Source of the DNA: a bacterium
Lineage (GTDB): Bacteria; Auribacterota; UBA3054
Direction: 5' to 3'
DNA length: 64,000 bases
NCBI GenBank assembly: GCA_017557885.1
Contig: JAFYXV010000009.1
Span: 27,049 to 91,048 of the forward strand
Every line of letters begins with the position of its first letter. Position 1 is the stretch's first letter. Below are positions 1,774-22,086 of this stretch, one piece after another. The position numbers and the translations under genes were made by a program. The notes beneath the pieces were generated by a model. It was not told the DNA's origin, did no database searches, and worked only from the letters and a program-made list of their open reading frames with translations.

Positions 1774-1816
1774 TATATAAACGCGCGGCAAATCACACAA
1801 AAACGCTCCCAATTAA

Positions 1817-1825
1817 TGCTATAAT
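1817..1825 (+). promoter_or_regulatory. extended -10 promoter element TGCTATAAT for the PHP-LolA-like operon (predicts a leaderless or near-leaderless mRNA)
   Basis: The sequence is TAATGCTATAAT. Eight nt separate the -10 from the ATG at 1834. Confidence 0.5.
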
Positions 1826-1833
1826 TTAGATGT

Positions 1834-4263: not shown

Positions 4264-4269
4264 AAAACA

Positions 4270-4689: not shown

Positions 4690-4690
4690 A

Positions 4691-5137
4691 TCACCACTCG
4701 CTAAAGGATTCCTCTTCCGGTTCCTTTTCGCTTTCCTCAAAGCGTTTGTACTCTTTGTAACGAACGTTGGCTTCCTCTTCCCGCTTTTCCGTGTTGTTCT
4801 CGTCCCTGAGGACCGCCATGCAGCCCTTGGTCATGGGATACAGCTCGCTGGGAGCCAAAGCGCCGAAAGGCCAGAGAATGTAGCCGGGCAGATAATACAC
4901 CCAGGCGGTGTAGGCCGCCATGTCGCCGTAGGTGGTGTTCCTGGTCTCCTCGTAAACTTTCATCTGATGCTCGTCGCCCAATTCGATAAGCTTATCCGAA
5001 CACCATTCGAAGCCGTTCAGAGGCGCGACAAGCGTGTCGCCTATGGCGGCGAAAGGCAGGGCGCAGCCGGCCCCGACCTTGCAGCCGCTGATCAATAAGG
5101 AAACAAGAACGGCCGATAGAAGCAATATTTTTTTCAT
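4691..5137 (-). CDS. YceK/YidQ-like (DUF1375-like) lipoprotein with an acidic C-terminal tail
   Basis: The ATG at 5137 gives MKKILLLSAVLVSLLISGC (lipobox ISGC). LPFAAIGDTLVAPL resembles the YceK motif LPFSLVFDTLLLP. The gene starts 6 nt after the metG stop. Confidence 0.5.
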   Translation of the reverse strand: MKKILLLSAVLVSLLISGCKVGAGCALPFAAIGDTLVAPLNGFEWCSDKLIELGDEHQMKVYEETRNTTYGDMAAYTAWVYYLPGYILWPFGALAPSELYPMTKGCMAVLRDENNTEKREEEANVRYKEYKRFEESEKEPEEESFSEW

Positions 5138-5142
5138 AGCGA

Positions 5143-7257
5143 TCACTGTATTGGTGTTCCGGGAGCAACTTCGGGGCTGTCGGTGGTTAAGAGCGTTACT
5201 TTGTCTTCCGTGCAGGCGCAAAGCAGCATGCCCTGGGATTCCAAGCCTCTCAGCTTGCGGTAAGGCAGGTTGCAGACAGCCACCACGTTCTTGCCGATGA
5301 CTTCCTCGGGCTTGTAATAAAGCGCAATGCCCGCCAGGATCTGGCGTTCCTCTGTTCCGAAGGAGACCTGCAGCTTCAGAAGCTTGTCGGCTTTGGGAAC
5401 GGCTTCGGCGCTCAATATCCTGCCGACTCTCAGGTCGATCTTCTCAAGATCCTCTATGGAGATCTTTTCAAGGGATATCGTTCCCTCCGGCGCTTGCTCG
5501 GCTTTTTTCTCTTCAGCCGACTTGGCGTATTCGTCCGCGGCTTTCTTCTCCTCAGCCTCTTCCTTTTCCATACGCTCAACGGCTTTGGCAAGGCGCTGCA
5601 GTTCCGGCTCGATGTCCTTGTCCTCCAGCTTGGAGAAAAGGATCTTCGGCTCGCTGATCTTCAGACCAGCCACTTCGATGTTCCAGGCATCGTTCCAAGG
5701 CGTATCCTCCAGTTTTCCCGTGAATCCCATCATGGAGAAAAGCTCTTCCATGGAGAAAGGAATAAAGGGGAAGAAGACCGTGTTCAAAGCTCTGATGATC
5801 CTGACGCAGGTGTACATGACGGCGGCGCAGCGTTCCATGTCTTCTTTTCTGAGTTTCCAGGGCTCCGAGGCGTCGTAATAGCGGTTGGCGGCCCTGGCCA
5901 TATCCATGGCCCTTCCTACGGCCTGACGGTTCTTATAGTGGTCGATAAGATCGCCGGTCTCCTGAAGGCCCAGTCTCATCTCGTCCAAAATGGCCTCGTC
6001 GGCCGCGGAAAGTTTCACCTTCTCCGGGACCTTGCCGTCGAAATACTTCTGCAGGAAAGTCGCCGTGCGGTTGATGAAGTTGCCGAGAATGTTGGCCAGC
6101 TCGTCGTTGTTGCAGCGCTGCAGCATCTTCCAGGAGAAGTCCGCGTCCTTGTTTTCCGGCAGGTTGGCCGCCAGGGTGTAGCGCAGGATGTCGGGAGCGA
6201 AACTCTTCAGATAATCCGGCACCCAGACGGCGTAGTCGCGGCTGGTAGAAAGTTTCCTGCCCTCCAGGTTCAAAAACTCGTTGGCGGGGATCTGGCTTGG
6301 CAGATTGTAGCCTTCCTGGGCCATCAAAACCGCCGGGAAGAAGATGGCGTGGAAAACGATGTTGTCTTTTCCTATAAAGTGTATGACTTCGCACTCCGGA
6401 TTCTTCCAGTAGTCTTTCCAGCGCTCGGGCTCCCCTATCTTTTCCGCCCATTCCTTGGTGGCGGAGATGTAGCCGATGGGAGCGTCGAACCAGACGTACA
6501 GAACTTTGCCTTCGCTGTCCGGCAGCGGAACGGGAATGCCCCATTCCAGGTCTCTGGTGATGGCGCGGTCCTCAAGCCCTTCCTTGAACCAGCCGCCGCA
6601 GTAGTTCATGACATTGTCCTTCCAGTCTTTCTTGGTGGCCAGCCAGTCCTCCAGTTCTTTCTGGAAGCGCGCCATGGGAAGATACCAGTGGGTAGTTGAT
6701 TTTACTACCGGCACGGTTCCGGAAATGGTGCTTCTGGGATTGATGAGGCTCATGGGATCCAGCCAGCTTCCGCATTTCTCGCACTGGTCGCCCCTGGCGT
6801 TGGTGTTGCCGCAATGCGGGCAGGTGCCCTGGACGTAGCGGTCCGCCAGGAACATCTTGTGCTCTTCATCGAAGAACTGCTTGCTCTCCTTGGAGACCAG
6901 CTTTCCGTCGCGGTGCATCTTCAGAAAAAACTCCTGGCTCGTGGCATGGTGGATCAAAAGCGAGGTCCTTGAAAAATTGTCAAATTTGATCCCCAATCCG
7001 GCGAAGCTGTCCCTGTTAAGCACATAGTATTCGTCCACCAGCTGCTGGGGCGTTATGCCGCGTTTTCTGGCCGCGATGGTGATGGGCACGCCGTGCTCGT
7101 CGGCGCCGCAGATGAAGACCACGTCGTCGCCTTTCAGGCGATGGTAACGGACGAAAATGTCAGCCGGCAGGTAGGCGCCCGCGATATGGCCGATGTGGAT
7201 GGGGCCGTTTGAATACGGCAGTGCGCTGGTAACAAGTAGCTTACGTTTCTTAGTCAT
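5143..7257 (-). CDS. metG: methionine--tRNA ligase with a C-terminal tRNA-binding (Trbp111/EMAP-like) domain
   Basis: It carries SALPYSNGPIHIGHIAG (HIGH-type motif), the Zn knuckle CPHCGNTNARGDQCEKCG, GRKLSTSR (KMSKS-type motif) and the C-terminal DLRVGRILSAEAVPKADKLLKLQV. Length is 704 aa. Confidence 0.97.
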   Translation of the reverse strand: MTKKRKLLVTSALPYSNGPIHIGHIAGAYLPADIFVRYHRLKGDDVVFICGADEHGVPITIAARKRGITPQQLVDEYYVLNRDSFAGLGIKFDNFSRTSLLIHHATSQEFFLKMHRDGKLVSKESKQFFDEEHKMFLADRYVQGTCPHCGNTNARGDQCEKCGSWLDPMSLINPRSTISGTVPVVKSTTHWYLPMARFQKELEDWLATKKDWKDNVMNYCGGWFKEGLEDRAITRDLEWGIPVPLPDSEGKVLYVWFDAPIGYISATKEWAEKIGEPERWKDYWKNPECEVIHFIGKDNIVFHAIFFPAVLMAQEGYNLPSQIPANEFLNLEGRKLSTSRDYAVWVPDYLKSFAPDILRYTLAANLPENKDADFSWKMLQRCNNDELANILGNFINRTATFLQKYFDGKVPEKVKLSAADEAILDEMRLGLQETGDLIDHYKNRQAVGRAMDMARAANRYYDASEPWKLRKEDMERCAAVMYTCVRIIRALNTVFFPFIPFSMEELFSMMGFTGKLEDTPWNDAWNIEVAGLKISEPKILFSKLEDKDIEPELQRLAKAVERMEKEEAEEKKAADEYAKSAEEKKAEQAPEGTISLEKISIEDLEKIDLRVGRILSAEAVPKADKLLKLQVSFGTEERQILAGIALYYKPEEVIGKNVVAVCNLPYRKLRGLESQGMLLCACTEDKVTLLTTDSPEVAPGTPIQ

Positions 7258-7309
7258 GAGCTTTTTCCCGTTCTTAAGATTTAGCTAAATTTTGCTTATT
7301 AATTTATTA

Positions 7310-7318
7310 ATTATAGCA
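7310..7318 (-). promoter_or_regulatory. extended -10 promoter element TGCTATAAT for the metG operon
   Basis: The minus strand reads ATTTGCTATAAT, with the -10 ending 52 nt upstream of the ATG at 7257. Confidence 0.5.
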
Positions 7319-7383
7319 AATCTGTCTTGATAAACGATTAAAGAAAGATGCCGCGCATAAACTACAACAAGATCTCATTCATA

Positions 7384-9549
7384 TCACTCGAATTTTAGCC
7401 GCAGCGCAACGTCTTTTTTCAGCGCTTTGACCTCTATCTCAAGCAATCCGTCAGAGGTAATCACCGAGGCCTTCGCCTCTCCTCCCTCGCACTCGATTTT
7501 CCCAAGGTCCAGCGACACTGGAACATGGAAGGAATAAGTCTCACTGGTGTTCTCCACACAGTCCAGGCTAAGCGTGAGCTCCTTGTCTTTCCACTCGCTA
7601 TTCTTAACGCTCACGGCGTCCATGCTGACATGACGAGTAGAAGCAATGAACTGCGGCTCTTTGCTCTTTTCCCTCAAACTTACCACCTGGCAGCTTCCGT
7701 ATTTCAGCTCCCTCATCGGCAGTCCTTCCTTGACTTCTCCCAAAAACTTCTTTTCCCAGAAGTCGTATGCCAGATACGTCTTCTTGGGATCCAACCCCAG
7801 CTTCTCAAGCTCCACTACGCTCTCCCCAAGCGACCAAAGCGCGTTTCTTGTCACCACGCACCAGTTCCCCCATTCTTTCGCAAAATGCACCGCCCACAGC
7901 GTCGAGAAAGGACTGTCCACTCCCGGCTCCGTTCTGCCGCCAACAAGCCTCATTTCTTCTCCTTCGTCTACGTCGCCTTTTTCAGAAACATAATTAGTAA
8001 TATGGTCCAGATGCATTTGCCCGCTCTCGGCAGGATAAGTTTCCAAGGACGGCAATCCTCTCTGCAAAATGTAGATCCTTTTCTGATCAAGGTCTTCGGG
8101 CTTGTCGCTGAACATATAAGAACCGCCGCCCAAAGAAACCGTGGAAACCTTGGCTCTCCCCCATTCCTCGTCCGTTCTCAGCAGCATATGGTCAGGATCA
8201 TTCACAAACAGTATTCTGTTGCAGGGAAACATCTCGGCGAAATAATACAGCTGCCTGTGATGATCAGGCCAGGTTTCCCCACAATCGCTGGCCACGCGAC
8301 AGGCATCGAACGAGTCGGACATTTCGGGCATTATGCCCCAGCAGCCTAAAATGTAAAAATCATCTCCCAAAGCCAATCTAGTCGCCAAGCAGAAGTTTCT
8401 CAGTCGCCTAACCGCTTCGTTATAACCGTAGGCCAAAAGCAACCCTTCGTAGAAAACATGCCTTAAGCCGTCGATCTTGACATATTCGAATCCGGCGTCT
8501 TTGAACGCTTTAAAAGTCGGAACGAAACAATTGGTGATCGTATAATCCGACATATCCAGGATCGTATTTATCCAATAAGAATATGCTTTGCGGCCGTTTG
8601 GCAAAATGCAGCGAAGATCCCTGGAAGAATTGTTCGGAGCGTATTTTTCGATCCCTGGAGACATCCATACGCCGGCGCGCAGCCCGTAGGAAGAGATCTT
8701 TTTGGCGATGGAAGCCGGACCTTCCGGGAAGTTTGAACTTGGCCGCATCCAGCTTTCAGCCAGGGAAACGTCGCCTTCTATGGACGGCGCTATCCTTTGG
8801 AAGCCGTTGTCTATCTGCATAAGGTCCATCCCGTAAGGATAAAAATTATTTTTTATAAAAGAGGCCATCTCTTCGATATTCTCCATCTTGATCTTATTCC
8901 CGTAGGCTTTCCACGAGCACCAGCCGTTGACGCTTTTTAAATTGGGCCTCCTCAGCCATGGTTTGTAATTCTTATAGCTCAGTATCGACCTGTAATAATT
9001 CGGCCGGAAGATAATGTTAAAGTAATAGTTGGAAATGGTAATGTTAAAACTGGCCGTAAGATCGCCGTTCTCACCCCTCGTCATGCTGTTGCCGCACCAT
9101 TCCCATTCTCCCCCGCTCCATTCCAAAAGGAAGTCCCTCCTGATATCGTAGACACCCTCGACGCCGTGTATCAACGGCTCTCCAACGCGCCCCAAAATGG
9201 CTTCTCCGCCGCCAGCCCTCCTCGAACGCATCACCCCTGCTTCCTGGCTAAAATACAAATTAACCTTTAACTTATGGATCTCCTTGTCGTTGAAAGCAAT
9301 CGTGCGCAGCTGCGTCATTGGCGAAGACTGCAAAATATCGCTGGTATTGTAAAAGGAACGGATCTCCTCGTCAGTATCGCAGATCACCTCGAAAATCACA
9401 TTGCCGTCATACGTCCCGGATACCACGTTGCCTTTCTGACTGGTAAAAAACGGTTCGCAGGGCGCTTCCTTTTCGTGTACGAAAGTCGCGAAGCAAGCAA
9501 ACGAGCCTAACACCAAAACAGCGCATGTAAAGTTTAGCATGTTTTTCAT
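7384..9549 (-). CDS. secreted clan GH-D glycosidase (alpha-galactosidase/melibiase-like, GH27/GH36-type)
   Basis: The ATG at 9549 (MKNMLNFTCAVLVLGSFACFA signal peptide) is preceded by AAAGGTGA. VNGWCSWKAYG...MQIDNGFQ, YVKIDGLRHV and VNDPDHMLL resemble the GWNSW / KxD / DPD blocks of GH27/36. The gene starts 4 nt after the stop of the upstream island gene. Confidence 0.6.
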   Translation of the reverse strand: MKNMLNFTCAVLVLGSFACFATFVHEKEAPCEPFFTSQKGNVVSGTYDGNVIFEVICDTDEEIRSFYNTSDILQSSPMTQLRTIAFNDKEIHKLKVNLYFSQEAGVMRSRRAGGGEAILGRVGEPLIHGVEGVYDIRRDFLLEWSGGEWEWCGNSMTRGENGDLTASFNITISNYYFNIIFRPNYYRSILSYKNYKPWLRRPNLKSVNGWCSWKAYGNKIKMENIEEMASFIKNNFYPYGMDLMQIDNGFQRIAPSIEGDVSLAESWMRPSSNFPEGPASIAKKISSYGLRAGVWMSPGIEKYAPNNSSRDLRCILPNGRKAYSYWINTILDMSDYTITNCFVPTFKAFKDAGFEYVKIDGLRHVFYEGLLLAYGYNEAVRRLRNFCLATRLALGDDFYILGCWGIMPEMSDSFDACRVASDCGETWPDHHRQLYYFAEMFPCNRILFVNDPDHMLLRTDEEWGRAKVSTVSLGGGSYMFSDKPEDLDQKRIYILQRGLPSLETYPAESGQMHLDHITNYVSEKGDVDEGEEMRLVGGRTEPGVDSPFSTLWAVHFAKEWGNWCVVTRNALWSLGESVVELEKLGLDPKKTYLAYDFWEKKFLGEVKEGLPMRELKYGSCQVVSLREKSKEPQFIASTRHVSMDAVSVKNSEWKDKELTLSLDCVENTSETYSFHVPVSLDLGKIECEGGEAKASVITSDGLLEIEVKALKKDVALRLKFE

Positions 9550-9553
9550 ATAT

Positions 9554-11980
9554 TCACCTTTGTTGTAATAAGCCTTTTCCAAGTCTTAAGATCAGTCCGT
9601 CTCTTTTCGGCAAAACAGTCATATTAAGAATTTTGCCGAAAACGTCCTTTCCGTCGAAAACGGAAACTTTGAATTGATACTCTCCCGCGGCTGTTGGTGT
9701 ACCACGCAATTCTCCGTTGGGGTTCAAATGAATGCCTGGCGGCAGAGCGCTGTTATCAGACGCTTGCCAAATGTAATTTTTCTTTTTTCCGCCGTCAGCT
9801 TTTAAACGTAAGAAATAATAGCGACCAACGTTAGCGTTTTCCAAAACATTCGTTGAAACTATCACTAGCGGGAAATCGTTGGTGTCAAACGGATCGTATC
9901 CTCTTTTTATTTCATAATTGTCATCCACGCCGTCGCCGTCTTCGTCTCCGGGTATGAAGATGAAGAAATTTCCGCTGTCGCTTGCCCTGCTGTTTTCGTG
10001 AGTATCTGTCGCGACAATCTGCCAATAGTGATAGCCTCGCTCGAAGTGTACGTTTTCCGTAGATATGTATTTGTTAGTTCCGTCGACGACATCATCATAA
10101 ATCAAGTCAAAACTGCTGTCGTATAAATAAAAATGCTGGAAAACGGTCTCGTTTTCAGGATCAACGGAAGGAAGCCACACGAAATTGACTTGCTCGTATT
10201 CCTGATTGACATCCGTTATATTACGAAATTGCAAAACCACATCGTCCCCGTTTATAGGTTCCAGCAAAATTGGTTTGCTAGGTGCCTCGTTTATAATATC
10301 GCCGATTTCGGCATCCCATATCAAATTCAATGTTTCGTCAAAACTTCCATAGCAATCTACCACCTTGATTGCCTGCTCTCGCACCGCAAAATTCATATCG
10401 CTGTAATTTAACAAGAAGGTAAACTTGAATCTCCTATAATATTTTGCTGAAAACGTAATCATTTTTACGTTGTTCTGATCCAAAGGACAATCTTCCCAAA
10501 AAACACTCAACCCTTCCATATCCAGCAACGGTTTCCAGTCGATGCTGCATACATAAACCGCCCCCGTCATCGGATCGGAGGAAAAAACGTTCAAATAAAA
10601 TGTATTGGTATAGAATTCACCCTCTCCTAAAGAGAAGTGGATCTCCGTCGGTTCAAATATGATTTTTCTAAATCCGTTGGTAAATATGGGATTAGTCTTA
10701 TTCTTCATTTCGGTAAGGTTGTCTATGCCGTCGCCGCCGCTGTCCGCCAAAGGATCGCTAAGGTTCAGAAATGACATTCCTGCCCTTTGAGCTATATCTG
10801 CCCAATAGTTCATCCAATCATTGTCTATCGAAGTAGCGTTCGAGCTATTGCAGGGATCCAACGGATGAGGGTCAACGTCATCCGTTAGTCCGTCTTCATC
10901 GGTGTCAGGGGAAGTTGGGTCTGTCACAAAATAATTCGTTTCTGAATTAAAAACATAATGATATCTCCCCAAAACCTCGTCACCGTCAGATATACCGTCG
11001 TCATCCGTATCATGCCAGTTGGCGATCGTGGTTACCACGTTTGTTTTGTCGCCTTCGGTCAAAAGAAGAACAATGGTTTGTTCAACAACTTCCACTCCGT
11101 CTTCCAGGCCGTCGTCATCAGTGTCTTTATTCGCCGGATCAGTGCCATACTTAAATATTTCATCCTCGTTGGACAAACCGTCTTCGTCATCGTCGCCGCT
11201 CATGTCCGCTTCTATGTGAAAAACGTTGTTCTCATCAGGCATTGTTAAATTTTCTCCGGATCTCAGCGTAACCTCAGTGGCATATTCATCCCAGTTTGTC
11301 ATAACAATAGAATTGTTAGAACGCGTGCTGACTCCTTTCAAAAACTCACAATATTCTTTATAATGAGGATTGTTTGGCGGTATTACCTTTACGACCACAT
11401 CAGTCGGGGCATCGTTTACAAAACTGCAATTAGGATATTTCTTGCCAAAACTAGACAACGTCGCTTTTGAATTAAGTTCATTAGATCTTTCCATGGAAAA
11501 ATCATATACCACATCCCAAAAAGTCATAGTGTCTTCTTGCAATCCGGTAATAGTTGTAATTTCTTTTTTCCCCGCAGCGTTTTTATTAAAATGCAAACCA
11601 TTAAAATCTAACTTAAGCGACAAATATACAAAACAGAAATTTACTTGTGATGGCAGCGAACCGTCTGCATAAACATTCGTATAATCATATTTTCTGAATT
11701 GTCGTCCGAAAACAGAAACAGGCCAAGATTTATCACCATACTCAACGCAGGAATAATAAAAAGGGACGGATAACAATATGCTTGTTGGTATAGGTATTTT
11801 TATTTTTCCAAACGGTAAAGGAATCACCTGCGTAGTCCAGCTGATCGTTGTGGGTTGATTAAAAATAAGTCCAGATAGATTTTTAAAAGTCTGCCGTATC
11901 TCTATTCCGGCAACTTTGTTTTCCGCGGGTAAATTATATACAGCAAGAAGCAGAAGCAAACACAAATAGATTTTTTTCAT
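9554..11980 (-). CDS. secreted protein with thrombospondin-type-3-like Ca-binding repeats and a C-terminal putative Ig (He_PIG-like) domain
   Basis: The signal peptide is MKKIYLCLLLLLAVYNLPA. Repeats include DDDEDGLSNEDE, DTDDDGLEDGVE, DTDDDGISDGDE, DTDEDGLTDDVD and SGGDGIDNLTE. The C-terminal LPPGIHLNPNGELRGTPTAAGEYQFKVSVFDG matches the He_PIG pattern. The gene is low in GC and overlaps the upstream gene by ATGA. Confidence 0.7.
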   Translation of the reverse strand: MKKIYLCLLLLLAVYNLPAENKVAGIEIRQTFKNLSGLIFNQPTTISWTTQVIPLPFGKIKIPIPTSILLSVPFYYSCVEYGDKSWPVSVFGRQFRKYDYTNVYADGSLPSQVNFCFVYLSLKLDFNGLHFNKNAAGKKEITTITGLQEDTMTFWDVVYDFSMERSNELNSKATLSSFGKKYPNCSFVNDAPTDVVVKVIPPNNPHYKEYCEFLKGVSTRSNNSIVMTNWDEYATEVTLRSGENLTMPDENNVFHIEADMSGDDDEDGLSNEDEIFKYGTDPANKDTDDDGLEDGVEVVEQTIVLLLTEGDKTNVVTTIANWHDTDDDGISDGDEVLGRYHYVFNSETNYFVTDPTSPDTDEDGLTDDVDPHPLDPCNSSNATSIDNDWMNYWADIAQRAGMSFLNLSDPLADSGGDGIDNLTEMKNKTNPIFTNGFRKIIFEPTEIHFSLGEGEFYTNTFYLNVFSSDPMTGAVYVCSIDWKPLLDMEGLSVFWEDCPLDQNNVKMITFSAKYYRRFKFTFLLNYSDMNFAVREQAIKVVDCYGSFDETLNLIWDAEIGDIINEAPSKPILLEPINGDDVVLQFRNITDVNQEYEQVNFVWLPSVDPENETVFQHFYLYDSSFDLIYDDVVDGTNKYISTENVHFERGYHYWQIVATDTHENSRASDSGNFFIFIPGDEDGDGVDDNYEIKRGYDPFDTNDFPLVIVSTNVLENANVGRYYFLRLKADGGKKKNYIWQASDNSALPPGIHLNPNGELRGTPTAAGEYQFKVSVFDGKDVFGKILNMTVLPKRDGLILRLGKGLLQQR

Positions 11981-13872
11981 CGTTCTCCTTTCTCCTCGGC
12001 AAGCATCTTCTGGTAATATTCTTTCCCATACTTGGCCTGCAGACGAATATTGCGCATTGTGTCTGGCTTGAAAACGAAGCTACAATCCTCCGTTAATCTG
12101 CATGTTCTGAAAGTCGGTACATATTCGCCTTGTAAATATATCTTTCGTTCATGTGCCAAAGATACTCCGAAACAAATAGCCAAAAATTCGTCAGAGAATG
12201 TATTCTCTTTATAAACTATAATATCTTCTCCTTTTGTTATTGGGCTATATCCATCATTATCCAGATAACTATCCTTATATTTAAAAAATTTATCAAGAAA
12301 AACTTTATTCCTTTGCATAATAGCAACTTGTATAAATCTATGCCAAGGATATTTGATATTCGCATGTGAAAATTCGATAATATTTGAACTGCCACTAAAG
12401 GAATAAGTATCAGGAAAAGGTTTTTTTATTTTTGGAATTTCAGGATATTTTTCCGGCAAGTGAGATTTCCCAAAACCTATCATAAATCTTAATGATTTAT
12501 ATTCAATTTTTTTATACTCAACTTTGTGATCAACATTATAACAAGATATAGCAATCGACTCAGGCTCGAACCAGCCTTCTTTTTTATAAGTAACTTTATA
12601 CTTGTGTATAGCCATAGGCTGCACTACGGCAAATTTATAATGCGGCTTGCTGTCGCGCACAACCTCGTTGTATAAAAATTTACTCTTGAATATTTTATCG
12701 TGCAATGGCTCGCTTGCAAGATACTTTATTCTCAGATAGTTTTTGCTGCTGTCATTCCAAAGTCCGGAGGCAAGTCTGACCTCCGTCATTACATTCGTAT
12801 TTATAAGGATATTAAACTCGCTCTCGTATTCGTCGTCCTTAATATTTCTCAAAACTAAATGTTTTGGGAAATATATAATTTTTTCCCTATTAGGAACTGT
12901 AGGATCCGTTTCAAGCAATTTTTCATCAGCATTGGTAAAACCGTCATTGTCACAGTCGCCGTTAGCGTCAATTAGCTTGTTTCGCAAAGTTTTGTCACCT
13001 TTGCTCCAATATTCTGCCCATTCATAAGGCATGGTTTTAGGATCCTTAGACTTGCAAGACACAAGCGGATTCTTGTCATCTTTGTCAGGTATTCCGTCGC
13101 CGTCAGTGTCCGGATCGGTAGGATCTGTCACAAATCCGTTTTTCCCATAAACTTCATCGCCGTCTATTAAACCATCTTTATCTGTATCTTTATTACCAGG
13201 TTTAGTAAATGCAAGTTTTTCTTTGATATCATTATTAACTTTTAATTTTATCATTATGCCTTTTATTTCATCCCAGTCTTCAATGCCATCTCCATCAAAA
13301 TCCTTATAATCCATGCATTTTAAACCGCCATACAGCTTTGCTTCCTCGCAATATTCATGTGCCTGAACATATCTTGCGAAACGAAGGCCGTTTTTGCCTT
13401 CATGCGTTTCCACATACTTGTCGCCGGGATGAAGCACGCAGCAAAGACAGTATTTTTCCTTAATGACATTCATGTCTGTTACCCCGTCCCTTTCAGCGCC
13501 TTCATAATCCAGAAACGTTATCACCACCACGTTGGAGGATGTGTTTACGAAGTCACGGGTGATAGGCTTTTCTTTCAAAAACACCCATTTTTGCCAGGGA
13601 TTTTGCTTGATCTCGTTTTGCCATTCTTCCTCTGTCATTTCATCTTCTGGCAAGGTCATTGACGAATCAGCTTTTCTCTTTTGAACGCTGGTTTTAGCGC
13701 TTGTCTCTGCTTGTTTCTTCTTTTCATCCGCTTCTTTTCTCGGTTTGGCTTCAGCATCGTTGATTTGGTAATATTCCCCAGTTTCAAAATCCAAAACCAT
13801 TTCGCAATAAGAACTGATCGCGGAAGCGCAGAACATAATGATTATTAGTTTAAATATTGTCTTCATAATCAT
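11977..13872 (-). CDS. secreted protein with thrombospondin-type-3-like Ca-binding repeats (distant paralog of 9554..11980)
   Basis: It has a signal peptide. Repeats include DFDGDGIEDWDE, DTDKDGLIDGDE, DTDGDGIPDKDD and DCDNDGFTNADE. An AGGAGA Shine-Dalgarno sits 7 nt upstream. It has ATGA overlaps with both neighbours and is low in GC. Confidence 0.7.
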   Translation of the reverse strand: MIMKTIFKLIIIMFCASAISSYCEMVLDFETGEYYQINDAEAKPRKEADEKKKQAETSAKTSVQKRKADSSMTLPEDEMTEEEWQNEIKQNPWQKWVFLKEKPITRDFVNTSSNVVVITFLDYEGAERDGVTDMNVIKEKYCLCCVLHPGDKYVETHEGKNGLRFARYVQAHEYCEEAKLYGGLKCMDYKDFDGDGIEDWDEIKGIMIKLKVNNDIKEKLAFTKPGNKDTDKDGLIDGDEVYGKNGFVTDPTDPDTDGDGIPDKDDKNPLVSCKSKDPKTMPYEWAEYWSKGDKTLRNKLIDANGDCDNDGFTNADEKLLETDPTVPNREKIIYFPKHLVLRNIKDDEYESEFNILINTNVMTEVRLASGLWNDSSKNYLRIKYLASEPLHDKIFKSKFLYNEVVRDSKPHYKFAVVQPMAIHKYKVTYKKEGWFEPESIAISCYNVDHKVEYKKIEYKSLRFMIGFGKSHLPEKYPEIPKIKKPFPDTYSFSGSSNIIEFSHANIKYPWHRFIQVAIMQRNKVFLDKFFKYKDSYLDNDGYSPITKGEDIIVYKENTFSDEFLAICFGVSLAHERKIYLQGEYVPTFRTCRLTEDCSFVFKPDTMRNIRLQAKYGKEYYQKMLAEEKGER

Positions 13873-15992
13873 TCTCCTGTAGGTTCGATTATGGCCAAAC
13901 GATCTCTTACAACTTCTAAGAAGTCTTTGTTATTTGAAGAAAAACGCTGTATTTGACTGTGAATTTGATCCGTAAATTTTGAATTGATACCGCTAAAGTA
14001 TGGATTATTATTTAGATAAGCAGCATAAGTGCCAACAGCGCTATCTGAGCGATTTAATCTGTACAGCTCATTATCATGCAAAAGAAACAGATTGCACTTT
14101 GATAAAATTCCAGTAATATACTCAGATATGCCCTCTATACTGTCTGCGATAACATCCCACCAAATATCTACGCTCAAAGAAGCATTATTGTACAAATCTT
14201 CCAAAATAGAATGGAAATTTGGAAATATGGTATATCTTCTATATTTACCCAACGAATCAACCATTGAAGTGCCAACTTCTTTAATATAAATATACTTTCT
14301 TAATCCAATAATTACAGAAATCATTTGATGATTAAATAAAAAATACGTGTGTCCTCTTTCCCAATTTTCCTCAGTCCCTCTTGATATTAAGTTCATATTT
14401 CCAGGACTTGTTCGTTTTATCAAAGTAGCCCCAAGAGCTAATATCATATTATTGTCAGCCAAAGATGATCCTAGTAAGGGCGGGGCAGCAAAAACAATAT
14501 TATCCACATTCTCACGAAACGAAGCGTTGTGCTCTTGACATTCATAATATGTCATTACGCATCCCGCTGAATGAGCAACAATCGTAGCCTTAAGGTCGTT
14601 AACACCGCGTTTTGATTTAATAAAATTCCGTAATTTGTTTTTGCTTACATAAGTATTCTTTATACTTCGCAATGAACTCCATGGGAAATCATGACATTCA
14701 TAAGGACGCATATTAATGAATGGATTGCTATCCAATAAACTTCCAAAAAAAGTATCGTCATCTGGTGTTCGAGGGCAAGCATCTATTCCATGAATCAAAA
14801 TTACCGGTTTTATTCGGCTAAGTTTAGTTTTACATGCATAGTAAGGTATTTGATCAAATTTTATTTTTGCAATGGTGTTTTCGCCTAAGCTTAAATTTAT
14901 AATTCTATGACGTATAATATTTTCATGATTATATTCATCATTAATTTCTTCAATTTTATTGCTGTTTATTTTTTCAAAATTTTCATCGTAATAATCAATC
15001 ATAAATGCTTGTTTGCAAGCAGTTTCAAAACACATCGTGCTATTCAAATTTTTAAAGGAAATATAGACAGGCCTGGGAGCTTGCGGAAGAGTAATTTGTG
15101 AGCCACCTGACGACCAGTTTATTGTTTCGGAAATTTCCTGCAAGTTTAATATCGCAAGCTTATAATCAATGTTACTTTGACTTGAATTATGATTAAAGCT
15201 TACTTCTATGTAAGCCGGTTTATTAATATCTAAATTGTTAAAAGTTAAAAGAGGTTTGAAACTAAAGTTAGTGGCGTGATTAATGCTTGAAGCCACAGTT
15301 ACGTGTTCGTTGTTGGCGTCAAGCTGAATTAAATGAATTTTTATCTGGCATTGAGCCATCGGGGTTGGAAAAGCGGCATAAATTTTGCCAGAGGTTTCCG
15401 TCGGAGTAAACCGATAATAATCCGAGTCTACTATAGAAACGGCGCCATTGTCTGTTTCTCCATAGAGGATATATTGTTTAACGCTATCATCAGGTAGTCC
15501 TATGTTTAAACTTGGAATGGTATCAACATTCACGGTACCGCCAGGAGCAGCGTCCCACTGAACTATCCAATTTACCGTGCGGTCGCCGGGGATATTTGTA
15601 AACTGAGTGTTTAAATGCGGATCAAAATTTCCATATTCTCCGTTTTCATTTAATATACCGGTTTCAGTCGTGGTAAAAACAAAACGGGCATCTGGTTCAT
15701 TAAAAAACGAGTTTTTGACTGATACAACATACGATTCAAAAATTTCCCCAGCGCTTTCAACTCCGTTGCTTATAACCAACCAGTCACAATTACTGGCCTG
15801 TATCTGACAATCGACCTCATAACTTGGATAATATTTCTTTCTCAACAAAATTTCAAAATTAGGATCTCCCTGAGTCAAACGAATGCAGATGTTAGTTGTA
15901 TACGGAGGATCCTTGGGAGGATTAACGTATTCCTCCGCGAAGCACATCATCGGTAAAATGAAAACAAATAATATGAATTTAAACTGTTTCAT
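13869..15992 (-). CDS. secreted alpha/beta-hydrolase (class-2 lipase/esterase-like) with a ~390-aa N-terminal non-catalytic region
   Basis: The signal peptide is MKQFKFILFVFILPMMCFA. KPVILIHGI, KATIVAHSAGCVMTYY (GxSxG-type AHSAG; Ser codon at 14568-14570) and NIVFAAPPLLGS parallel Bacillus LipA (PVVMVHGI / VDIVAHSMGG / VVTLGG). Later RSDSAV and QIHSQ are candidate Asp and His residues. Confidence 0.65.
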   Translation of the reverse strand: MKQFKFILFVFILPMMCFAEEYVNPPKDPPYTTNICIRLTQGDPNFEILLRKKYYPSYEVDCQIQASNCDWLVISNGVESAGEIFESYVVSVKNSFFNEPDARFVFTTTETGILNENGEYGNFDPHLNTQFTNIPGDRTVNWIVQWDAAPGGTVNVDTIPSLNIGLPDDSVKQYILYGETDNGAVSIVDSDYYRFTPTETSGKIYAAFPTPMAQCQIKIHLIQLDANNEHVTVASSINHATNFSFKPLLTFNNLDINKPAYIEVSFNHNSSQSNIDYKLAILNLQEISETINWSSGGSQITLPQAPRPVYISFKNLNSTMCFETACKQAFMIDYYDENFEKINSNKIEEINDEYNHENIIRHRIINLSLGENTIAKIKFDQIPYYACKTKLSRIKPVILIHGIDACPRTPDDDTFFGSLLDSNPFINMRPYECHDFPWSSLRSIKNTYVSKNKLRNFIKSKRGVNDLKATIVAHSAGCVMTYYECQEHNASFRENVDNIVFAAPPLLGSSLADNNMILALGATLIKRTSPGNMNLISRGTEENWERGHTYFLFNHQMISVIIGLRKYIYIKEVGTSMVDSLGKYRRYTIFPNFHSILEDLYNNASLSVDIWWDVIADSIEGISEYITGILSKCNLFLLHDNELYRLNRSDSAVGTYAAYLNNNPYFSGINSKFTDQIHSQIQRFSSNNKDFLEVVRDRLAIIEPTGE

Positions 15993-17779
15993 TTTCTTAT
16001 AATCAAATAATTGAAAAAAAGCGGTTCGATGTTTTCACCATCAGATTGACGCCTTACGCAAAAAGATTCGTTACTGGCATTTACCACAACCCAATACGGA
16101 GTCGTGGTTTCCTGACGCGGAGTCAAAAGGATAATGGCATTGCTTGTTAATCCTGAGCATGAAACAGGCGATGATGCGTCAGAATTTATCGGTATCTCTA
16201 CAACTCCGCACTGTGTCGAGTTTTGAAATTGCAAGAATGACTGAGCCTGAATATTGCCGCCTTCAGTCGCCAAAAGCGTCAAATCGCCGTTTGGGGCGAT
16301 TATTTTTCCTGTCGAATTAGCTATTACCACATTACAGGAATTAGTTGTGCTTCCTACTACCCAATCTCCGCTTCCGTTTATCTTTAAATCGGATACTTTT
16401 AAAGACCCTATAACTGTTCCTCCGTTAGTTGTTATAAGCATGTCTTTAAGATCATCGCAAAACATTTCCCAAGAAATTTTCGAATTAAACAAATTAGGAT
16501 GTTCTGCAAGTAAGGAAACAAACATATCACCAAGGCTGGAACTTGTGACAACTGCCGAGCCGCCTACGGTAATATTTCCGCTTTCTACAGCAAATCCGTT
16601 CTCGTTGAACGTGAAGCTTTCATCGTCGCTGAATTTGAATATAGACCAAATGTCTTGCATAGTATATGTTAATGACCAATAAAAACTTAAATATTCATAA
16701 AAGAACTGCTGGGGGGTCATTCCACTGCGGGGTTCATCTCCTCCTCCCCTGGGCTCGTTAGAAGCGCCGTATGGTTTATAGAAATCTCCGTACCTTATAC
16801 TTGAACAAGTATATACGTAAAGCGGAGTGTTGCCAGTTCTTTTCACACAAAGCAAATAATCTCGATCTGCAAAAATTTGCACAGGGGATGAAAACGAATA
16901 GGTGATTCTGGGAAAATTCGACGTATTTATTAAGGCGGCAGGGTACTCAACTATTTGAGCGACACCAGAGTTAATTACGCAAGCAGATATGTAAACATTT
17001 TGTGGCGATAAGATCCTGGCAACATTATCGCAGTATAAAGTCACGCTTTCAAGCTGGGTATCGCGTGAGACACGGAAAGTGTTGCCTGCTCTATCCCAAT
17101 TGCAATCAACCGCAGGCAGCCAATAGCTTGCTCCAGTGGTAGGATCTATTCTGCCGACAATGGGAGAAGATCTGGCAATCACTACGCTTCCGTCATCATT
17201 AATTGTAATGGCGTTAGTTATGTCCTCGCATATCTCATCAAGTCTATTGTAAGCGATGGAAAGATTCTGCAAAGCTCCCTGGGAATTTGATAAAGAATTC
17301 GCAATTGAGTTAACGGCATTTGAGAGACTGGCCAAGTTGGAACTTAAAGCCGTGAAGGAAGTTTTTAAATCTACGACTTGATTTGAAACCGCTATAAGTT
17401 CTTCTAGAGTTGCGAAAGAAGAGCCGGAATTGAAAACTTCTTCGGAATAAAGAAAAAATCTTTCAAAATCATTAATTTCATAAACGCCGCTATTAAGACG
17501 AGCGTCATTGTTAATGCTAAACCTCGAATTGGAAAATTGGAACAAATTGGAGAGACATTGAAACTTTTCCGGGAGGTCATATTCCAGTTTTGCCAATCTG
17601 GAGGTAACGGAAACATACTGCTCTTTAATATATTTTGATTGGACCTCTAAATTGGAAACAGCTTGTGACAAGTAAGCTCTAAGCTCGGGATCTTGATAAC
17701 AAGAAGAGCTATTATCAATTGCAGACGCGACAACGGTTGCCGGAATTAAGAGAAAAAAAAGGAGTGAAAAGTTTTTCAT
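15989..17779 (-). CDS. secreted hypothetical protein, fibre-like (Asn/Ser-rich coiled-coil segment followed by beta-rich domains)
   Basis: The signal peptide is MKNFSLLFFLLIPATVVASA. A heptad-like stretch reads TSFTALSSNLASLSNAVNSIANSLSNSQGALQNLSIAYNRL. This is the first gene of the low-GC operon and follows a consensus promoter. No family was recognised. Confidence 0.5.
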   Translation of the reverse strand: MKNFSLLFFLLIPATVVASAIDNSSSCYQDPELRAYLSQAVSNLEVQSKYIKEQYVSVTSRLAKLEYDLPEKFQCLSNLFQFSNSRFSINNDARLNSGVYEINDFERFFLYSEEVFNSGSSFATLEELIAVSNQVVDLKTSFTALSSNLASLSNAVNSIANSLSNSQGALQNLSIAYNRLDEICEDITNAITINDDGSVVIARSSPIVGRIDPTTGASYWLPAVDCNWDRAGNTFRVSRDTQLESVTLYCDNVARILSPQNVYISACVINSGVAQIVEYPAALINTSNFPRITYSFSSPVQIFADRDYLLCVKRTGNTPLYVYTCSSIRYGDFYKPYGASNEPRGGGDEPRSGMTPQQFFYEYLSFYWSLTYTMQDIWSIFKFSDDESFTFNENGFAVESGNITVGGSAVVTSSSLGDMFVSLLAEHPNLFNSKISWEMFCDDLKDMLITTNGGTVIGSLKVSDLKINGSGDWVVGSTTNSCNVVIANSTGKIIAPNGDLTLLATEGGNIQAQSFLQFQNSTQCGVVEIPINSDASSPVSCSGLTSNAIILLTPRQETTTPYWVVVNASNESFCVRRQSDGENIEPLFFNYLIIRK

Positions 17780-17814
17780 AAAGACAAATGAAGGTTTATG
17801 TTAACATTTGTTTT

Positions 17815-17843
17815 ATTATATGAAATAAACCATTGGTTGTCAA
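17815..17843 (-). promoter_or_regulatory. sigma70-type promoter, perfect consensus TTGACA-N17-TATAAT
   Basis: The minus strand reads TTGACA accaatggtttatttca TATAAT. The -10 ends 35 nt upstream of the ATG at 17779. Confidence 0.7.
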
Positions 17844-17943
17844 AGCTGTATAAACAAAAAAGCATCCAGTTTTTTAAGGAAATCTCGCTTGCAAGAGTTT
17901 TGGCTGTGAGGCATTTAAATATATATTCTTTAAGTCGGGAGAC

Positions 17944-17972
17944 AAAAAAAATACCCGCGCTTTCGCGCGGGT
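17944..17972 (-). terminator. rho-independent terminator (bidirectional shape) after the Cys-rich gene
   Basis: The stem is ACCCGCGC (17953-17960) / GCGCGGGT (17965-17972) with loop TTTC. It is flanked by A7 on one side and T5 on the other, and lies 25 nt downstream of the stop at 17997. Confidence 0.8.
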
Positions 17973-17996
17973 ATTTTTACCATTAAAGTAATTTAA

Positions 17997-18593
17997 TTAC
18001 TTCTGGGGGCATTCGCACTTTTCGCTGTCTTCCCAAATGCAGGGGAGCTTCGGCCAGCAGTCTTCTTCCCAAACCGGGGTCAGGCTGACGGCATCATAGA
18101 AGCTGTTTTCAGCAAAGCCGAAGAGCAGGCAATCGGAGAGACCGCAAAGGAAGCGGGCAGTGCCGATGAAAACGCCTTCAGCGGCGCCAAGAACGAAACC
18201 GAAGATCGGAACAGCAGCGCTGCCCATGAAAGCTTCTTCAGTCACTTCAGCGGGGCTGGCGACCATGTTGTCGATGCCGCGGGCCCAAGCTTTGTTGATC
18301 TTGAACCAAATGTTCTCGGTGGTCTTGGGTTCGGGCTTGCAGGGCTGGCAGGGCTGGCAGCAGTTCACGAAAGTGAAACCGCAGCAGGGGCTGCAGGGCT
18401 GGCAAACGGGCTTGGCGCAAGTCCCGCAAGAAACGACGTTCAGATTGCAGGGCTGGCAGGGGGTTTTCTCGACGCACTTGTAGTTCACGGCGACCTGCTG
18501 ACCGCAGGAGCCATCGTTGCACTGCATTTCGACTTCAGCGAAAGCGGTGCCAACAAAAGCGACCAGAACCAAGAGGGTCATGAGTTTCTTCAT
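17997..18593 (-). CDS. secreted Cys-rich (CQPC-repeat) protein with a C-terminal TIGR04073-like (exosortase-associated) domain
   Basis: The ATG at 18593 gives the signal peptide MKKLMTLLVLVAFVGTAFA. There are 15 Cys in 61 aa (CQPC, CSPCC, NCCQPCQPC). The C-terminal RGIDNMVASPAEV...GFVLGAAEGVFIGTARFLCGLSDCLLFGF resembles my recollection of the TIGR04073 pattern (RG..N......E.P ... G..kG......R...G..e..tFPF). Confidence 0.55.
   Translation of the reverse strand: MKKLMTLLVLVAFVGTAFAEVEMQCNDGSCGQQVAVNYKCVEKTPCQPCNLNVVSCGTCAKPVCQPCSPCCGFTFVNCCQPCQPCKPEPKTTENIWFKINKAWARGIDNMVASPAEVTEEAFMGSAAVPIFGFVLGAAEGVFIGTARFLCGLSDCLLFGFAENSFYDAVSLTPVWEEDCWPKLPCIWEDSEKCECPQK
18338..18458 (-). repeat. in-frame short DNA repeat encoding CQPC
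   Basis: The 13-mer TGCAGGGCTGGCA occurs at 18338-18350, 18392-18404 and 18446-18458, with a partial copy GGGCTGGCA at 18351-18359. On the coding strand this reads TGCCAGCCCTGCA. Confidence 0.85.
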
Positions 18594-18682
18594 AGTTTTC
18601 CTTCCTACTTGTTTTGTTGTTGATGTGTTTTCCACCGACTCTAGGAAAAGTCGGAGGCGTTAATTAAAAATTATTTTGCTTT

Positions 18683-18711
18683 ATTCTATCAGATGTGCCC
18701 CCGCAAGTCAA
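18683..18711 (-). promoter_or_regulatory. sigma70-type promoter TTGACT-N17-TAGAAT for the Cys-rich gene
   Basis: The minus strand reads TTGACT tgcgggggcacatctga TAGAAT, directly after the stop of the upstream gene (18715). It predicts a leader of about 80 nt that contains a 9-bp hairpin (18632-18640 / 18649-18657, one mismatch). Confidence 0.55.
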
Positions 18712-18714
18712 TAC

Positions 18715-20088
18715 TCACTCCTCCACCAGGTCAAGCAGGACCCTGAGGTGGAGGGTCTGGCTCTTGGTCATCTTGAGTTTCTCCCCATACTGGGTGACCA
18801 TGACACCGCTTTTGGAATTGTAAAGGGAGAGCCTCAGGCCGTCGTAGGGGTAGTAGCCGTTCTCTGGGGTTTGCGTTTCGGACTGGAAATAGCCTTTCCC
18901 CCTCACCAGCAGAAAATCCCCGGACTTTCTTTGGAGAAGCTTTTGGGGCCCCCTCAGGGGATACCAGGACTCCAGCTGGTTAATTAAGACCACCCCTTCC
19001 TTGGCCACGATGCCCTCGTCGGACCCTTTGACCAGGGAGTAGCCCGGACGTTCCTTTTCCGCCTTGATGGCCACCGGGGCGCCTGCGGGGAATTTTGTGA
19101 CCAGGCTCAGGCAGGACATGACGTCGTGGGAAGTGATGTTTTTGGACATGACGTCGATGGTCAATTCCCCGCTGCGGGGGTTCAGGCGGTAAACGATCAT
19201 GCGCCGGACGCCGTTCAATAGGTCCGGGGCCGCCAGCACTCTTACGGCGCCGTCCTCCTCTATCCGCCATTTCCATTTCTTGGGATCCGCCACTTTGGCC
19301 TTGTAATTGCGGGTGGGGACGATCTCCTCCTCGGGCTGCAGGAAAGACTGCATGGTCCCGCCGAAATTCTCCCGGCTGTCGGGGCCGTAGTGCACCAGCA
19401 TGCCGTGGTGCTCCGGAGCGATCATAACGCAGGCGTAAGCGTTGCTAACGCCGACGAGGGGGCCGTATTCGCTGCCTGTCGGCCTGCAGAAGACCGTCAC
19501 GCCCTGCCTTGTTTCCGTGGGGAAAGCCCGGAAGCTTTCGCTTTTGCACTGGGAAACGTAGTTGGTCCTACCGAAGATCATGGCCTCCCTGAGCCTCACG
19601 CCGCCCTCCAGTTCCGGATCCAAAAGATCAACCACGGCCTCGCTGTCCCCTTCCACGGTTATAGTAAGGTCTTCCGTGCCCTTGAAAGTCTGGTTGACTT
19701 CCTCAAAGGAGCCTTTTTTGATATCCGCTTCCCAGATGGTCTTTTTGTTGCCGCTTATCCTGACTTTGGCCTTGGCTTCCTTCGGCGAGGTCTCGTCCAT
19801 GCAGACGCACATCTTCAGAGTCGTCTTGTCTTGCGGCAAAGAATAGACCAAAATTGCGCTGCCCTTGACGCTCAAGCCCTTCTCAAAGACCGTCCCTCCG
19901 TTCTTAAGACTCTTCCCCTCGAAGGTCTCGTTGCGTGTCACTTTAGGCGCGCCGCCCTTTTGAGCGTAGCACTCCACTCCCACAGGCTCGCTGAGGCTGA
20001 CGTGGGAACGGTCATAGACTCTCTGGTCCACGCTGGCGCAGCCCAAAATTAGCAAAGCCGCGCCGCTAAAGAAAAGAACGTTTTTCAT
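18715..20088 (-). CDS. lipoprotein with an N-terminal NPCBM-like carbohydrate-binding module and a C-terminal beta-sandwich of unknown function
   Basis: The ATG at 20088 (MKNVLFFSGAALLILGC, lipobox) overlaps the upstream stop (ATGA). GKSLKNGGTVFEKGLSVKGSAILVYSL...LKMCVCMDE...AKVRISGNKKTIWE follows the NPCBM pattern (..G..y.kGlg.ha.s...y.l......f...vG.dd......v.f.v..dg). Confidence 0.45.
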   Translation of the reverse strand: MKNVLFFSGAALLILGCASVDQRVYDRSHVSLSEPVGVECYAQKGGAPKVTRNETFEGKSLKNGGTVFEKGLSVKGSAILVYSLPQDKTTLKMCVCMDETSPKEAKAKVRISGNKKTIWEADIKKGSFEEVNQTFKGTEDLTITVEGDSEAVVDLLDPELEGGVRLREAMIFGRTNYVSQCKSESFRAFPTETRQGVTVFCRPTGSEYGPLVGVSNAYACVMIAPEHHGMLVHYGPDSRENFGGTMQSFLQPEEEIVPTRNYKAKVADPKKWKWRIEEDGAVRVLAAPDLLNGVRRMIVYRLNPRSGELTIDVMSKNITSHDVMSCLSLVTKFPAGAPVAIKAEKERPGYSLVKGSDEGIVAKEGVVLINQLESWYPLRGPQKLLQRKSGDFLLVRGKGYFQSETQTPENGYYPYDGLRLSLYNSKSGVMVTQYGEKLKMTKSQTLHLRVLLDLVEE

Positions 20089-22058: not shown

Positions 22059-22086
22059 ATGTTTCCTTAATGATATTAATTGCAAA

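Follow-up and report, generated by a model that had tools for sequence, protein, structure and literature searches.

The 64,000-nt stretch analysed here (hereafter the window; positions 27,049 to 91,048 of contig JAFYXV010000009.1, assembly GCA_017557885.1) carries a block of five genes, fib, lip, TSP_631, TSP_808 and GHD, between the genes exo_198 and metG. As a description of its evolution as a whole, it is very probable that the segment 7321–17942 is one copy of a lineage-restricted, AT-rich family of five-gene cassettes that bring their own promoter. The cassette is undescribed, matches no described system and is restricted to one lineage. When the evolutionary description is blended with a proposed function, the resulting overall explanation is the best available, and we favour it by a modest degree. 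The original prediction, made from the letters of the window, had described an AT-rich operon of secreted proteins that was horizontally acquired by an unexplained route. The observation was confirmed and the first interpretation was partly supported.

An AT-rich operon inserted between exo_198 and metG

The GC content was 0.32–0.44 in each 500-nt interval from 9501 to 18000 and 0.49–0.62 on either side, in agreement with the compositional break that had been predicted at approximately 9.55–17.8 kb. The mean GC content was 0.408 for the cassette genes (7384–17779) and 0.551 for the remainder of the window. Within the cassette, the four upstream genes had a GC content of 0.386 and GHD of 0.494. 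The GC content at third codon positions (GC3) was 0.375 in fib, 0.302 in lip, 0.369 in TSP_631 and 0.430 in TSP_808, compared with 0.69–0.77 in five flanking host genes (metG, exo_198, NPCBM, Metallopep and the gene of a 323-aa neighbour). GHD was intermediate (0.615). The anticipated discontinuity in codon usage was thus present, and this comparison places the AT shift of the island at synonymous sites.

Relatives were sought with a MetG scan of GTDB species representatives, which yielded seven close relatives (MetG identity 89–96%) and a UBA3054 fragment (L044). The seven were all uncultured metagenome-assembled genomes (MAGs) from buffalo, yak, goat and sheep forestomach. The host belongs to an uncultured ruminant-gut lineage, probably the candidate phylum UBP3. 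UBP3 has been described as uncultured, forestomach-specific and rich in carbohydrate-active enzymes (CAZymes) (PMC8831627, PMC9765126).

In six of the seven relatives (L014–L019) and in the UBA3054 fragment, exo_198 was followed by metG after 120–135 bp. In these seven empty-site species, which include the closest one (96% MetG identity), the exo_198 terminator led directly into the metG promoter with a clean junction. The block is accordingly not conserved at this locus throughout the clade. The alignment with the empty sites delimited an inserted segment whose left edge lies directly after the T-run of the exo_198 terminator and whose right edge lies directly before the extended −10 element of metG, TTTGCTATAAT (Table 1). 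The segment takes in the GH-D-like gene. GHD therefore belongs to the cassette and is not native. The extent of the inserted unit was corrected on this point, and the block itself proved real. The Metallopep, NPCBM and exo_198 genes and metG are native and syntenic with the relatives.

The two closest empty sites (L014, approximately 9900–9930, and its equivalent in L016) contained a GC-rich, partly palindromic spacer of approximately 30 bp between the terminator and the metG −10 element. The more distant relatives have no such spacer. Since the window retains only the outer few bases of this spacer, on either side of the island, the insertion lies inside it. No direct or inverted repeat of at least 9 nt was common to both island ends, no tRNA or Rfam family was found closer than 57 kb to the island, and no integrase or transposase domains (Pfam, NCBIfam) were found in the five cassette proteins or their immediate neighbours, as the original prediction had noted. 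A search of the 64 kb for a further cassette copy yielded none.

The five open reading frames (ORFs) are co-oriented on the minus strand and lie where they had first been read. At three junctions the coding strand reads ATGA, and GHD begins (ATG, 9549) 4 nt past the TGA that ends the fourth gene, preceded by AAGGTGA. The perfect consensus promoter claimed earlier was also recovered, and an imperfect inverted repeat surrounds its −10 box (Table 1). This repeat is a possible operator and is too short for an invertible promoter segment. No terminator-like site was found between GHD and metG (window 7258–7383), and transcription from the strong cassette promoter probably reads through into metG, which keeps its own promoter. 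Other cassette copies likewise start just past the terminator of the upstream gene, with their own TTGAC(A/T)-17-TAnAAT promoter in the same relative place.

All five N-termini consist of an n-region with K/R and a hydrophobic core (12-aa Kyte-Doolittle maximum 2.4–2.8, compared with 1.5 for MetG). By this heuristic of n-region and hydropathy, which is not a dedicated predictor, all five products look Sec-exported, and the claim of signal peptides held to that extent.

Table 1. Coordinates of the cassette genes, their control elements, the insertion boundaries and the near-identical tract in the 64 kb window.
Feature	Position	Strand	Description
fib_596	15989..17779	-	Putative signal peptide; predicted coiled-coil helices 31-68 and 125-189; beta-sandwich ~220-340; conserved C-terminal beta-domain ~440-596
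lip_707	13869..15992	-	Putative signal peptide; predicted tandem beta-sandwiches ~30-400; predicted alpha/beta-hydrolase with HG(I)D, S475, D650 and H678
TSP_631	11977..13872	-	Putative signal peptide; beta-domain; TSP3 calcium-repeat array; lineage-specific C-terminal domain
TSP_808	9554..11980	-	Putative signal peptide; N-terminal domain; TSP3 arrays; Ig/FN3-like and He_PIG Ig domains; C-terminal K-R-x-G-L...G-K-G
GHD_721	7384..9549	-	Putative signal peptide; predicted GH36-like (clan GH-D) alpha-galactosidase-type domain
Cassette promoter, TTGACA-17-TATAAT	17815..17843	-	Sole 12/12 sigma-70 match in 5000-18700 (13.7 kb)
Imperfect 17-nt inverted repeat around the -10 box	17783-17799, 17825-17841 (arms)	-	76% complementary; 25 nt between arms; possible operator
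Inserted segment, whole cassette and promoter	7321..17942	-	10,622 bp; from alignment with empty sites L014-L019 and L044
exo_198 intrinsic terminator, native left boundary	17943..17978	-	14-bp perfect stem and T-run; kept in empty-site relatives
metG extended -10 element, native right boundary	7310..7320	-	Kept in all empty-site relatives and in L035
Near-identical tract with second strain type	6755..18774	.	One difference in 12.0 kb; from single-nucleotide polymorphism maps against L003, L004, L008 and L009

A cassette family confined to one lineage

An identical arrangement of the five genes recurred at other chromosomal sites: one bounded by an HhH-GPD gene and acyltransferase/dnaE (56% and 42% lip identity), one upstream of ftsK (39%), one with NUDIX/tRNA-Leu on one side and a GH127 gene on the other (30%), and one more. 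With metG included, the family occupies at least five sites, with 30–84% identity between copies, and the gene order is kept down to 30% identity. The metG site itself is occupied by a permuted form (type B, fib-808-lip-631-GHD) in the seventh relative, MAG RGIG10100 (L035), and in a metagenome contig (L064). As RGIG10100 holds a second cassette at its dnaE site (L050), at least two cassettes can occur in one genome. Every copy had a GC content of 0.36–0.41 and a GC3 of 0.24–0.46, against flanks with approximately 0.55 GC and a GC3 of 0.69–0.79; persistent AT-richness is a trait of the family. Across the copies GHD was consistently the least AT-rich (GC3 0.40–0.62) and the most conserved gene.

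A related AT-rich mini-cassette (L069, 4818–10632; L070) encodes fib (595 aa), a lipase-domain protein (463 aa), a TSP3 and He_PIG protein (375 aa) and a 483-aa protein to which no function could be given. It lies after lexA-like, umuC and yolD-like genes, and its site is empty in L071. Further fib-like fragments were seen near the mini-cassette. One variant of the cassette at the GH127 site carries, upstream of fib, two additional AT-rich genes (L059/L061, 3867–7207), which encode a 732-aa protein without an assigned family and a 381-aa TSP3 and He_PIG protein that is 30% identical to the 375-aa protein of the mini-cassette. In L055/L056, a tRNA-like sequence (tRNA-Leu by eye) and a terminator lie approximately 140–225 nt upstream of fib; this was the sole cassette copy seen adjoining a tRNA.

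The homologues of lip formed 19 clusters among 5.8 billion sequences, all approximately 700 aa long and unnamed, and those of fib formed 52 clusters in a set of the same size (5.8e9), again all unnamed. An exhaustive search with the lip profile in 1.84 billion representatives gave 61 matches, 7 of them full length and approximately 35 comprising the hydrolase core alone, as in the mini-cassette. Metagenome contigs from JGI contributed eight cassette loci. No relatives of fib, lip, TSP_631 or TSP_808 were found outside the lineage among 5.8 to 15 billion proteins, and GHD was the sole cassette family with relatives elsewhere. There were no relatives in IMG/VR and INPHARED, no relative of lip_707 among the PLSDB plasmids, no PHROG match for the five proteins and no PADLOC defence profile (0 families for all five). 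Across Pfam, NCBIfam, PHROGs and PADLOC, the five proteins and their divergent homologues matched just TSP3, He_PIG and, weakly, Melibiase or alpha/beta-hydrolase families, in keeping with the earlier view that the combination is not a described system. All cassette contexts examined had flanks of approximately 0.55 GC, and none was that of a low-GC donor.

Proposed exchange by homologous recombination

Compared with a second strain type of its own species, the window showed 111 differences in positions 1–6754 (1.6%) and approximately 30 in positions 18775–20100 (2.3%), nearly all of them synonymous. The tract between them (Table 1) contained a single difference, a non-synonymous C/T exchange at position 10737 in TSP_808. 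The tract takes in the island, approximately 0.6 kb of metG and, towards exo_198, approximately 0.8 kb. A single difference over 12 kb, set against 1.6–2.3% divergence in the flanks, marks it as recently imported and far younger than its surroundings, and puts the crossovers in the core genes on either side. The DNA of L002 was identical to that of the window, and L003 differed at 10737 alone. The shorter forms annotated in L002/L003 (TSP_808 as 657 aa, TSP_631 as 619 aa) were examined as truncations and were found to be gene-calling differences.

Several pairs of copies share only part of their length. L063 and L064 were 99.7% identical from approximately codon 190 of fib onward, whereas their upstream sequences were unrelated and their contexts different. 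The promoter and fib 5' end of L064 resembled those of the window (74%). Between the window and L035, homology resumed in the last ~545 bp of GHD; this part belongs to a flank-like block of homology with the type B locus, which places a recombination breakpoint inside GHD. Judged from these alignments, the cassette copies are mosaic. At the dnaE site of two species, the flanking proteins were 93–95% identical and the cassette proteins 40–73%.

The chromosome around the island also shows a generally mosaic, recombining pattern as far as the alignments reach. In positions 20100–22065, beyond the diverged NPCBM segment, the window and L008 differed at 2 sites in approximately 2 kb. The 1213-aa Metallopep gene (22087–25728) is replaced in the second strain type by a different AT-rich block (L008/L009/L010, 1–5700; GC 0.32–0.37, GC3 0.25–0.29) that encodes at least five signal-peptide proteins (643+, 474, 320, 413 and 286 aa), none with a Pfam match. 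The block in L008 was considered as a relative of the cassette and was rejected, as the two were unrelated on comparison. Elsewhere in the window, a short AT-rich intergenic stretch (31486–31906, GC 0.30–0.34) lies between two plus-strand ORFs.

We propose that homologous recombination, acting in flanking core genes and between paralogous copies, adds, replaces and removes cassettes; the crossovers that were seen lie at the 5' end of fib and the 3' end of GHD. Because homologous recombination would move the cassettes, integrases, tRNAs and repeats are not needed. The acquisition route, which had been left unexplained, can now be given at the level of strains by the 12 kb tract and the mosaic cassettes. 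The claim of a horizontally acquired module holds in that an insertion is present at a site empty in seven species; it does not hold as a singular import from an unrelated low-GC donor.

Predicted proteins of the cassette

The AlphaFold2 (AF2) model of fib_596 had a predicted local distance difference test score (pLDDT) of 60, with residues 220–340 at 80–89. When the fib profile was compared with the PDB, trimeric or other coiled coils were the only matches, and Foldseek returned weak matches to phage baseplate and tail-fibre proteins. As far as the model can be read, these fold matches indicate a fibre architecture and nothing further. The C-terminal 155–210 aa are the sole part of fib_596 that it has in common with longer fib variants.

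In an alignment of 19 lip sequences (A1), HG(I)D at residues 401–404, S475 in AHSAGC and H678 were invariant, and D650 was at least 90% conserved. The AF2 model of lip_707 had a pLDDT of 77 overall and below 50 at residues 635–660. Its hydrolase core was matched by Foldseek to the Streptomyces lipase 5h6g (E 2.5e-4, TM(target) 0.43, 181 columns), and relatives of the core gave weak matches to LCAT, PGAP1, DUF676 and Lipase_3. From the model, lip_707 is predicted to have an alpha/beta-hydrolase fold with a nucleophile elbow and Ser-Asp-His residues. This much of the designation as lipase-like was upheld and nothing beyond it was confirmed. At the cut-off, lip_707 belonged to no curated family (DUF7379 at 17.6 bits against a cut-off of 33; none in NCBIfam), and the PDB held no sequence relative. 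The protein resembles LCAT, PGAP1, DUF676, class-2-3 lipases and esterases with appended carbohydrate-binding modules (CBMs) in its HG oxyanion motif, its G-H-S-x-G elbow, its triad and its CBM-like N-terminal beta-sandwiches. It differs from these families by a unique triple beta-sandwich N-terminus of ~370 aa and a long helical insertion.

The best Foldseek match for the N-terminal half of lip_707 was botulinum HA70/HA3 (4lo4, 9ea9; E 2e-9, probability 1.0), which has tandem jelly-roll beta-sandwiches of the glycan-binding type; sialidase CBMs and cadherin arrays were matched as well. However, with TM-scores of 0.12–0.19, 11% identity and no toxin-complex context, the resemblance to HA70/HA3 is one of domain fold only. 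A profile comparison between the lip N-terminus and TSP_808 showed no relationship.

TSP_631 and TSP_808 are paralogues over a core of ~280 columns that comprises the beta-domain and the TSP3 array (hhalign 99.7%, E 1e-26), and their termini differ. TSP_631 scored 25.0 bits with Pfam TSP3_bac (PF18884; gathering cut-off 25), had about 80 invariant positions in its alignment (A3), and the sole kind of PDB match to its profile was an OmpA-family TSP3 protein (5wtl, E 8e-6). TSP_808 matched He_PIG (E 1.2e-7) and scored 20.5 bits with TSP3_bac, compared with 44–49 bits for its homologues. Its alignment (A4) had many invariant residues and a conserved C-terminal K-R-x-G-L...G-K-G motif, and no PDB sequence relative was found.

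Residues 206–434 of GHD_721 aligned with Thermotoga maritima TmGalA (GH36; PDB 1zy9) with an E-value of 7.6e-10, including the K-I-D nucleophile motif (KIDGL aligned to KIDFL). An NDPDHM motif was present, but outside the aligned stretch. By analogy with GH27/GH36 in general, the Asp of KID would be the nucleophile, and the NDPDHM motif may hold the acid/base Asp. The Pfam Melibiase score of the window protein was 19.7 bits, below the cut-off of 27, and Melibiase was found in cassette homologues (L052, E <= 1e-5; also among precomputed domains of homologues). Taken together, the alignments identify GHD_721 as a probable GH36-like alpha-galactosidase-type enzyme. In contrast to GH36 alpha-galactosidases, to which it is ~25–37% identical, GHD_721 has a putative signal peptide and lies in a cassette. 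The relatives of ~720 aa outside the lineage (33–37% identity, named alpha-galactosidase; Paenibacillus and one Verrucomicrobia MAG) sit in sugar ABC-transporter operons or adjoin an NPCBM gene, and never lie in a cassette.

Comparison with described systems

Capsule and O-antigen loci of Streptococcus, E. coli and Klebsiella are variable surface loci that are exchanged by flanking homologous recombination. The cassette resembles them in its fixed site between core genes, with divergent alleles (type A and type B) and an empty state at exo_198/metG, and in its low GC content, its lack of mobility genes and an import tract that ends in flanking genes. Unlike these loci, it encodes an exported fibre, TSP3 proteins and hydrolases, and the same family occurs at several other sites in one genome. 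No glycosyltransferase, flippase or polymerase domains (Pfam, NCBIfam) were found in it. The cassette thus behaves like a recombination-exchanged variable surface locus with entirely different content.

With genomic islands of the integrase/tRNA type the cassette shares its outlying composition and its absence from sister genomes, but there is no integrase, att repeat or tRNA at the metG site. A SusC/SusD-type pair with a regulator, as in a polysaccharide utilization locus, was found neither among the cassette genes nor among those directly beside them, whether in this window or across more than 15 loci.

Cellulosome-type complexes depend on calcium for scaffolding. Surface multiprotein complexes for adhesion and degradation have been proposed for the rumen bacterium Fibrobacter succinogenes (PMC6851124). 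The cassette is similar to both in its rumen habitat, in encoding exported enzymes together with non-catalytic binding or scaffold proteins and in calcium repeats that resemble dockerin/TSP3 loops. It differs in that domains of the cohesin, dockerin, fibro-slime, TPR or OmpA type (Pfam, NCBIfam) were not detected and in that it lacks a cellulase.

Alternative explanations

The cassettes might form a hypervariable surface coat or decoy, with which the cells would chiefly vary antigens or receptors in the face of phages or rumen protozoa, the enzymes being secondary. Such a role fits the multiplicity of paralogous copies, their mosaic recombination, the wholesale replacement of the N-terminal part of fib, cassette divergence several-fold above that of the flanks and presence/absence polymorphism at several sites. 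It sits poorly with the strict conservation of the lip catalytic residues and GH36 motifs and with the good conservation of GHD and TSP_808, and no invertase, diversity-generating retroelement reverse transcriptase or silent-copy arrays were found in the loci examined. We regard this explanation as improbable.

A single recent import from an unrelated low-GC organism, whose DNA has not yet drifted to the composition of the host, is quite improbable. The low GC3 (0.30–0.43 against 0.69–0.77), the empty site in the closest relatives and the near-zero diversity within the island among strains would be expected of it. Yet the family occurs at five or more sites with 30–84% identity and flanks that are always at ~0.55 GC, the metG site of another species (L035, L064) holds a divergent cassette, and neither homologues of fib, lip, TSP_631 and TSP_808 in another background (5.8e9 to 1.5e10 proteins) nor matches in viral contigs, phage or plasmid records were found.

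No more credible is the opposite explanation, that the cassettes are ancient, vertically inherited paralogous operons subject to differential loss, with no recent lateral transfer and with an AT-richness kept by selection (silencer or regulator binding, codon-limited expression). It conflicts with the single difference in 12 kb beside flanks that diverge by 1.6–2.3%, mostly at synonymous sites, with the 99.7% identity of two cassettes in different contexts, with the clean empty sites of seven species, the closest among them, in which the terminator-promoter junction is intact, and with cassettes of 40–73% identity between flanks of 93–95% at one site. What it would explain is that the family is endemic, that its gene order is kept down to 30% identity, that all copies are equally AT-rich and that many residues are invariant, as under long-term constraint.

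Derivation from a phage (a module of tail fibre and depolymerases, a tailocin or a prophage remnant) is largely refuted and very remote: the combination of fibre, glycosidase and esterase recalls a tail-spike enzyme set and the sole significant Foldseek matches of fib were phage phi812 baseplate proteins and viral models of the tail-fibre type, but these had TM-scores below 0.2 on a model with a pLDDT of 60, any fibrous protein would match tail fibres in a library of viral structures only, there were no PHROG, IMG/VR or INPHARED relatives, all five proteins have putative signal peptides, and no capsid, terminase, sheath, tube or integrase gene was seen in more than 15 loci.

Proposed function and significance

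Our preferred explanation of an exchangeable, lineage-restricted cassette is joined to a functional model, an adhesive and hydrolytic module of Sec-exported proteins, that we put forward tentatively and consider somewhat less than probable. In this model, the five products would act together at the cell envelope or surface. Fib would be a coiled-coil fibre with a swappable N-terminal (distal) part and a conserved C-terminal docking domain, and TSP_631 and TSP_808 would be a calcium-stabilized scaffold or adhesins. Lip_707, with its CBM/HA70-like beta-sandwiches and Ser-Asp-His triad, and GHD_721 would attack an acylated, alpha-galactosylated substrate. A plant galactolipid such as digalactosyldiacylglycerol (DGDG) is one candidate substrate, and esterified galactosylated glycans are equally possible. 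Plant galactolipid is a major forage lipid, and the rumen bacteria that hydrolyse it are just partly known (PMC9626764). Dozens of residues were invariant in each aligned family (lip, TSP_631, TSP_808) and the lip catalytic triad residues were intact, indicating constraint.

More broadly, and doubtfully, the fib-headed AT-rich cassettes (five-gene, permuted and mini) might encode a phylum-restricted, exchangeable extracellular organelle, a fibre-anchored and calcium-stabilized enzyme complex whose modules are shuffled between sites. Their AT-richness (GC3 0.25–0.45, compared with ~0.75 for the genome) would then stem from a vehicle or reservoir of AT-rich DNA that has yet to be discovered, or from selection that favours AT-rich DNA as a regulatory or silencing signal.

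Several points weigh against the combined evolutionary and functional explanation. Homologous recombination accounts for exchange where a site is occupied or homologous, and not for the first arrival at a new one. The GC3 gap of 0.3–0.45 persists between copies that are just 30% identical, which recombination within a lineage of 0.55 GC does not account for and which may point to an unseen AT-rich reservoir. Placement of the host in UBP3 depends on a single relative, L044, and the fib_596 model (pLDDT 60) is of low confidence. Co-function of the five proteins we infer from conserved linkage and translational coupling alone. With regard to a surface location, neither a type IX secretion system C-terminal domain (Por_Secre_tail) nor an autotransporter/YadA anchor, LPXTG or PEP-CTERM was found at the C-termini (Pfam, NCBIfam), which differ among the five proteins. 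As no sorting domain was found, 'secreted', as the products had first been called, is better replaced with 'Sec-exported'. The substrate proposal is speculative, as the likeness to LCAT, PGAP1 and lipases is weak and a role as carbohydrate esterase is equally possible.

Beyond CAZyme counts, almost nothing is known of this ruminant-forestomach-specific lineage. The cassette family appears to be a major and actively exchanged part of its accessory genome and includes four protein families without relatives elsewhere. The locus cleanly illustrates how, in nature, an island spreads without mobility genes, and it poses a compositional problem, that of a gene family which stays ~35–45 GC3 points under its genome across deep divergence. 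If the cassette does encode a surface apparatus for adhesion and hydrolysis, it would provide new candidates for galactolipid- or ester-cleaving enzymes of the rumen and would bear on how this lineage attaches to feed particles and degrades them.

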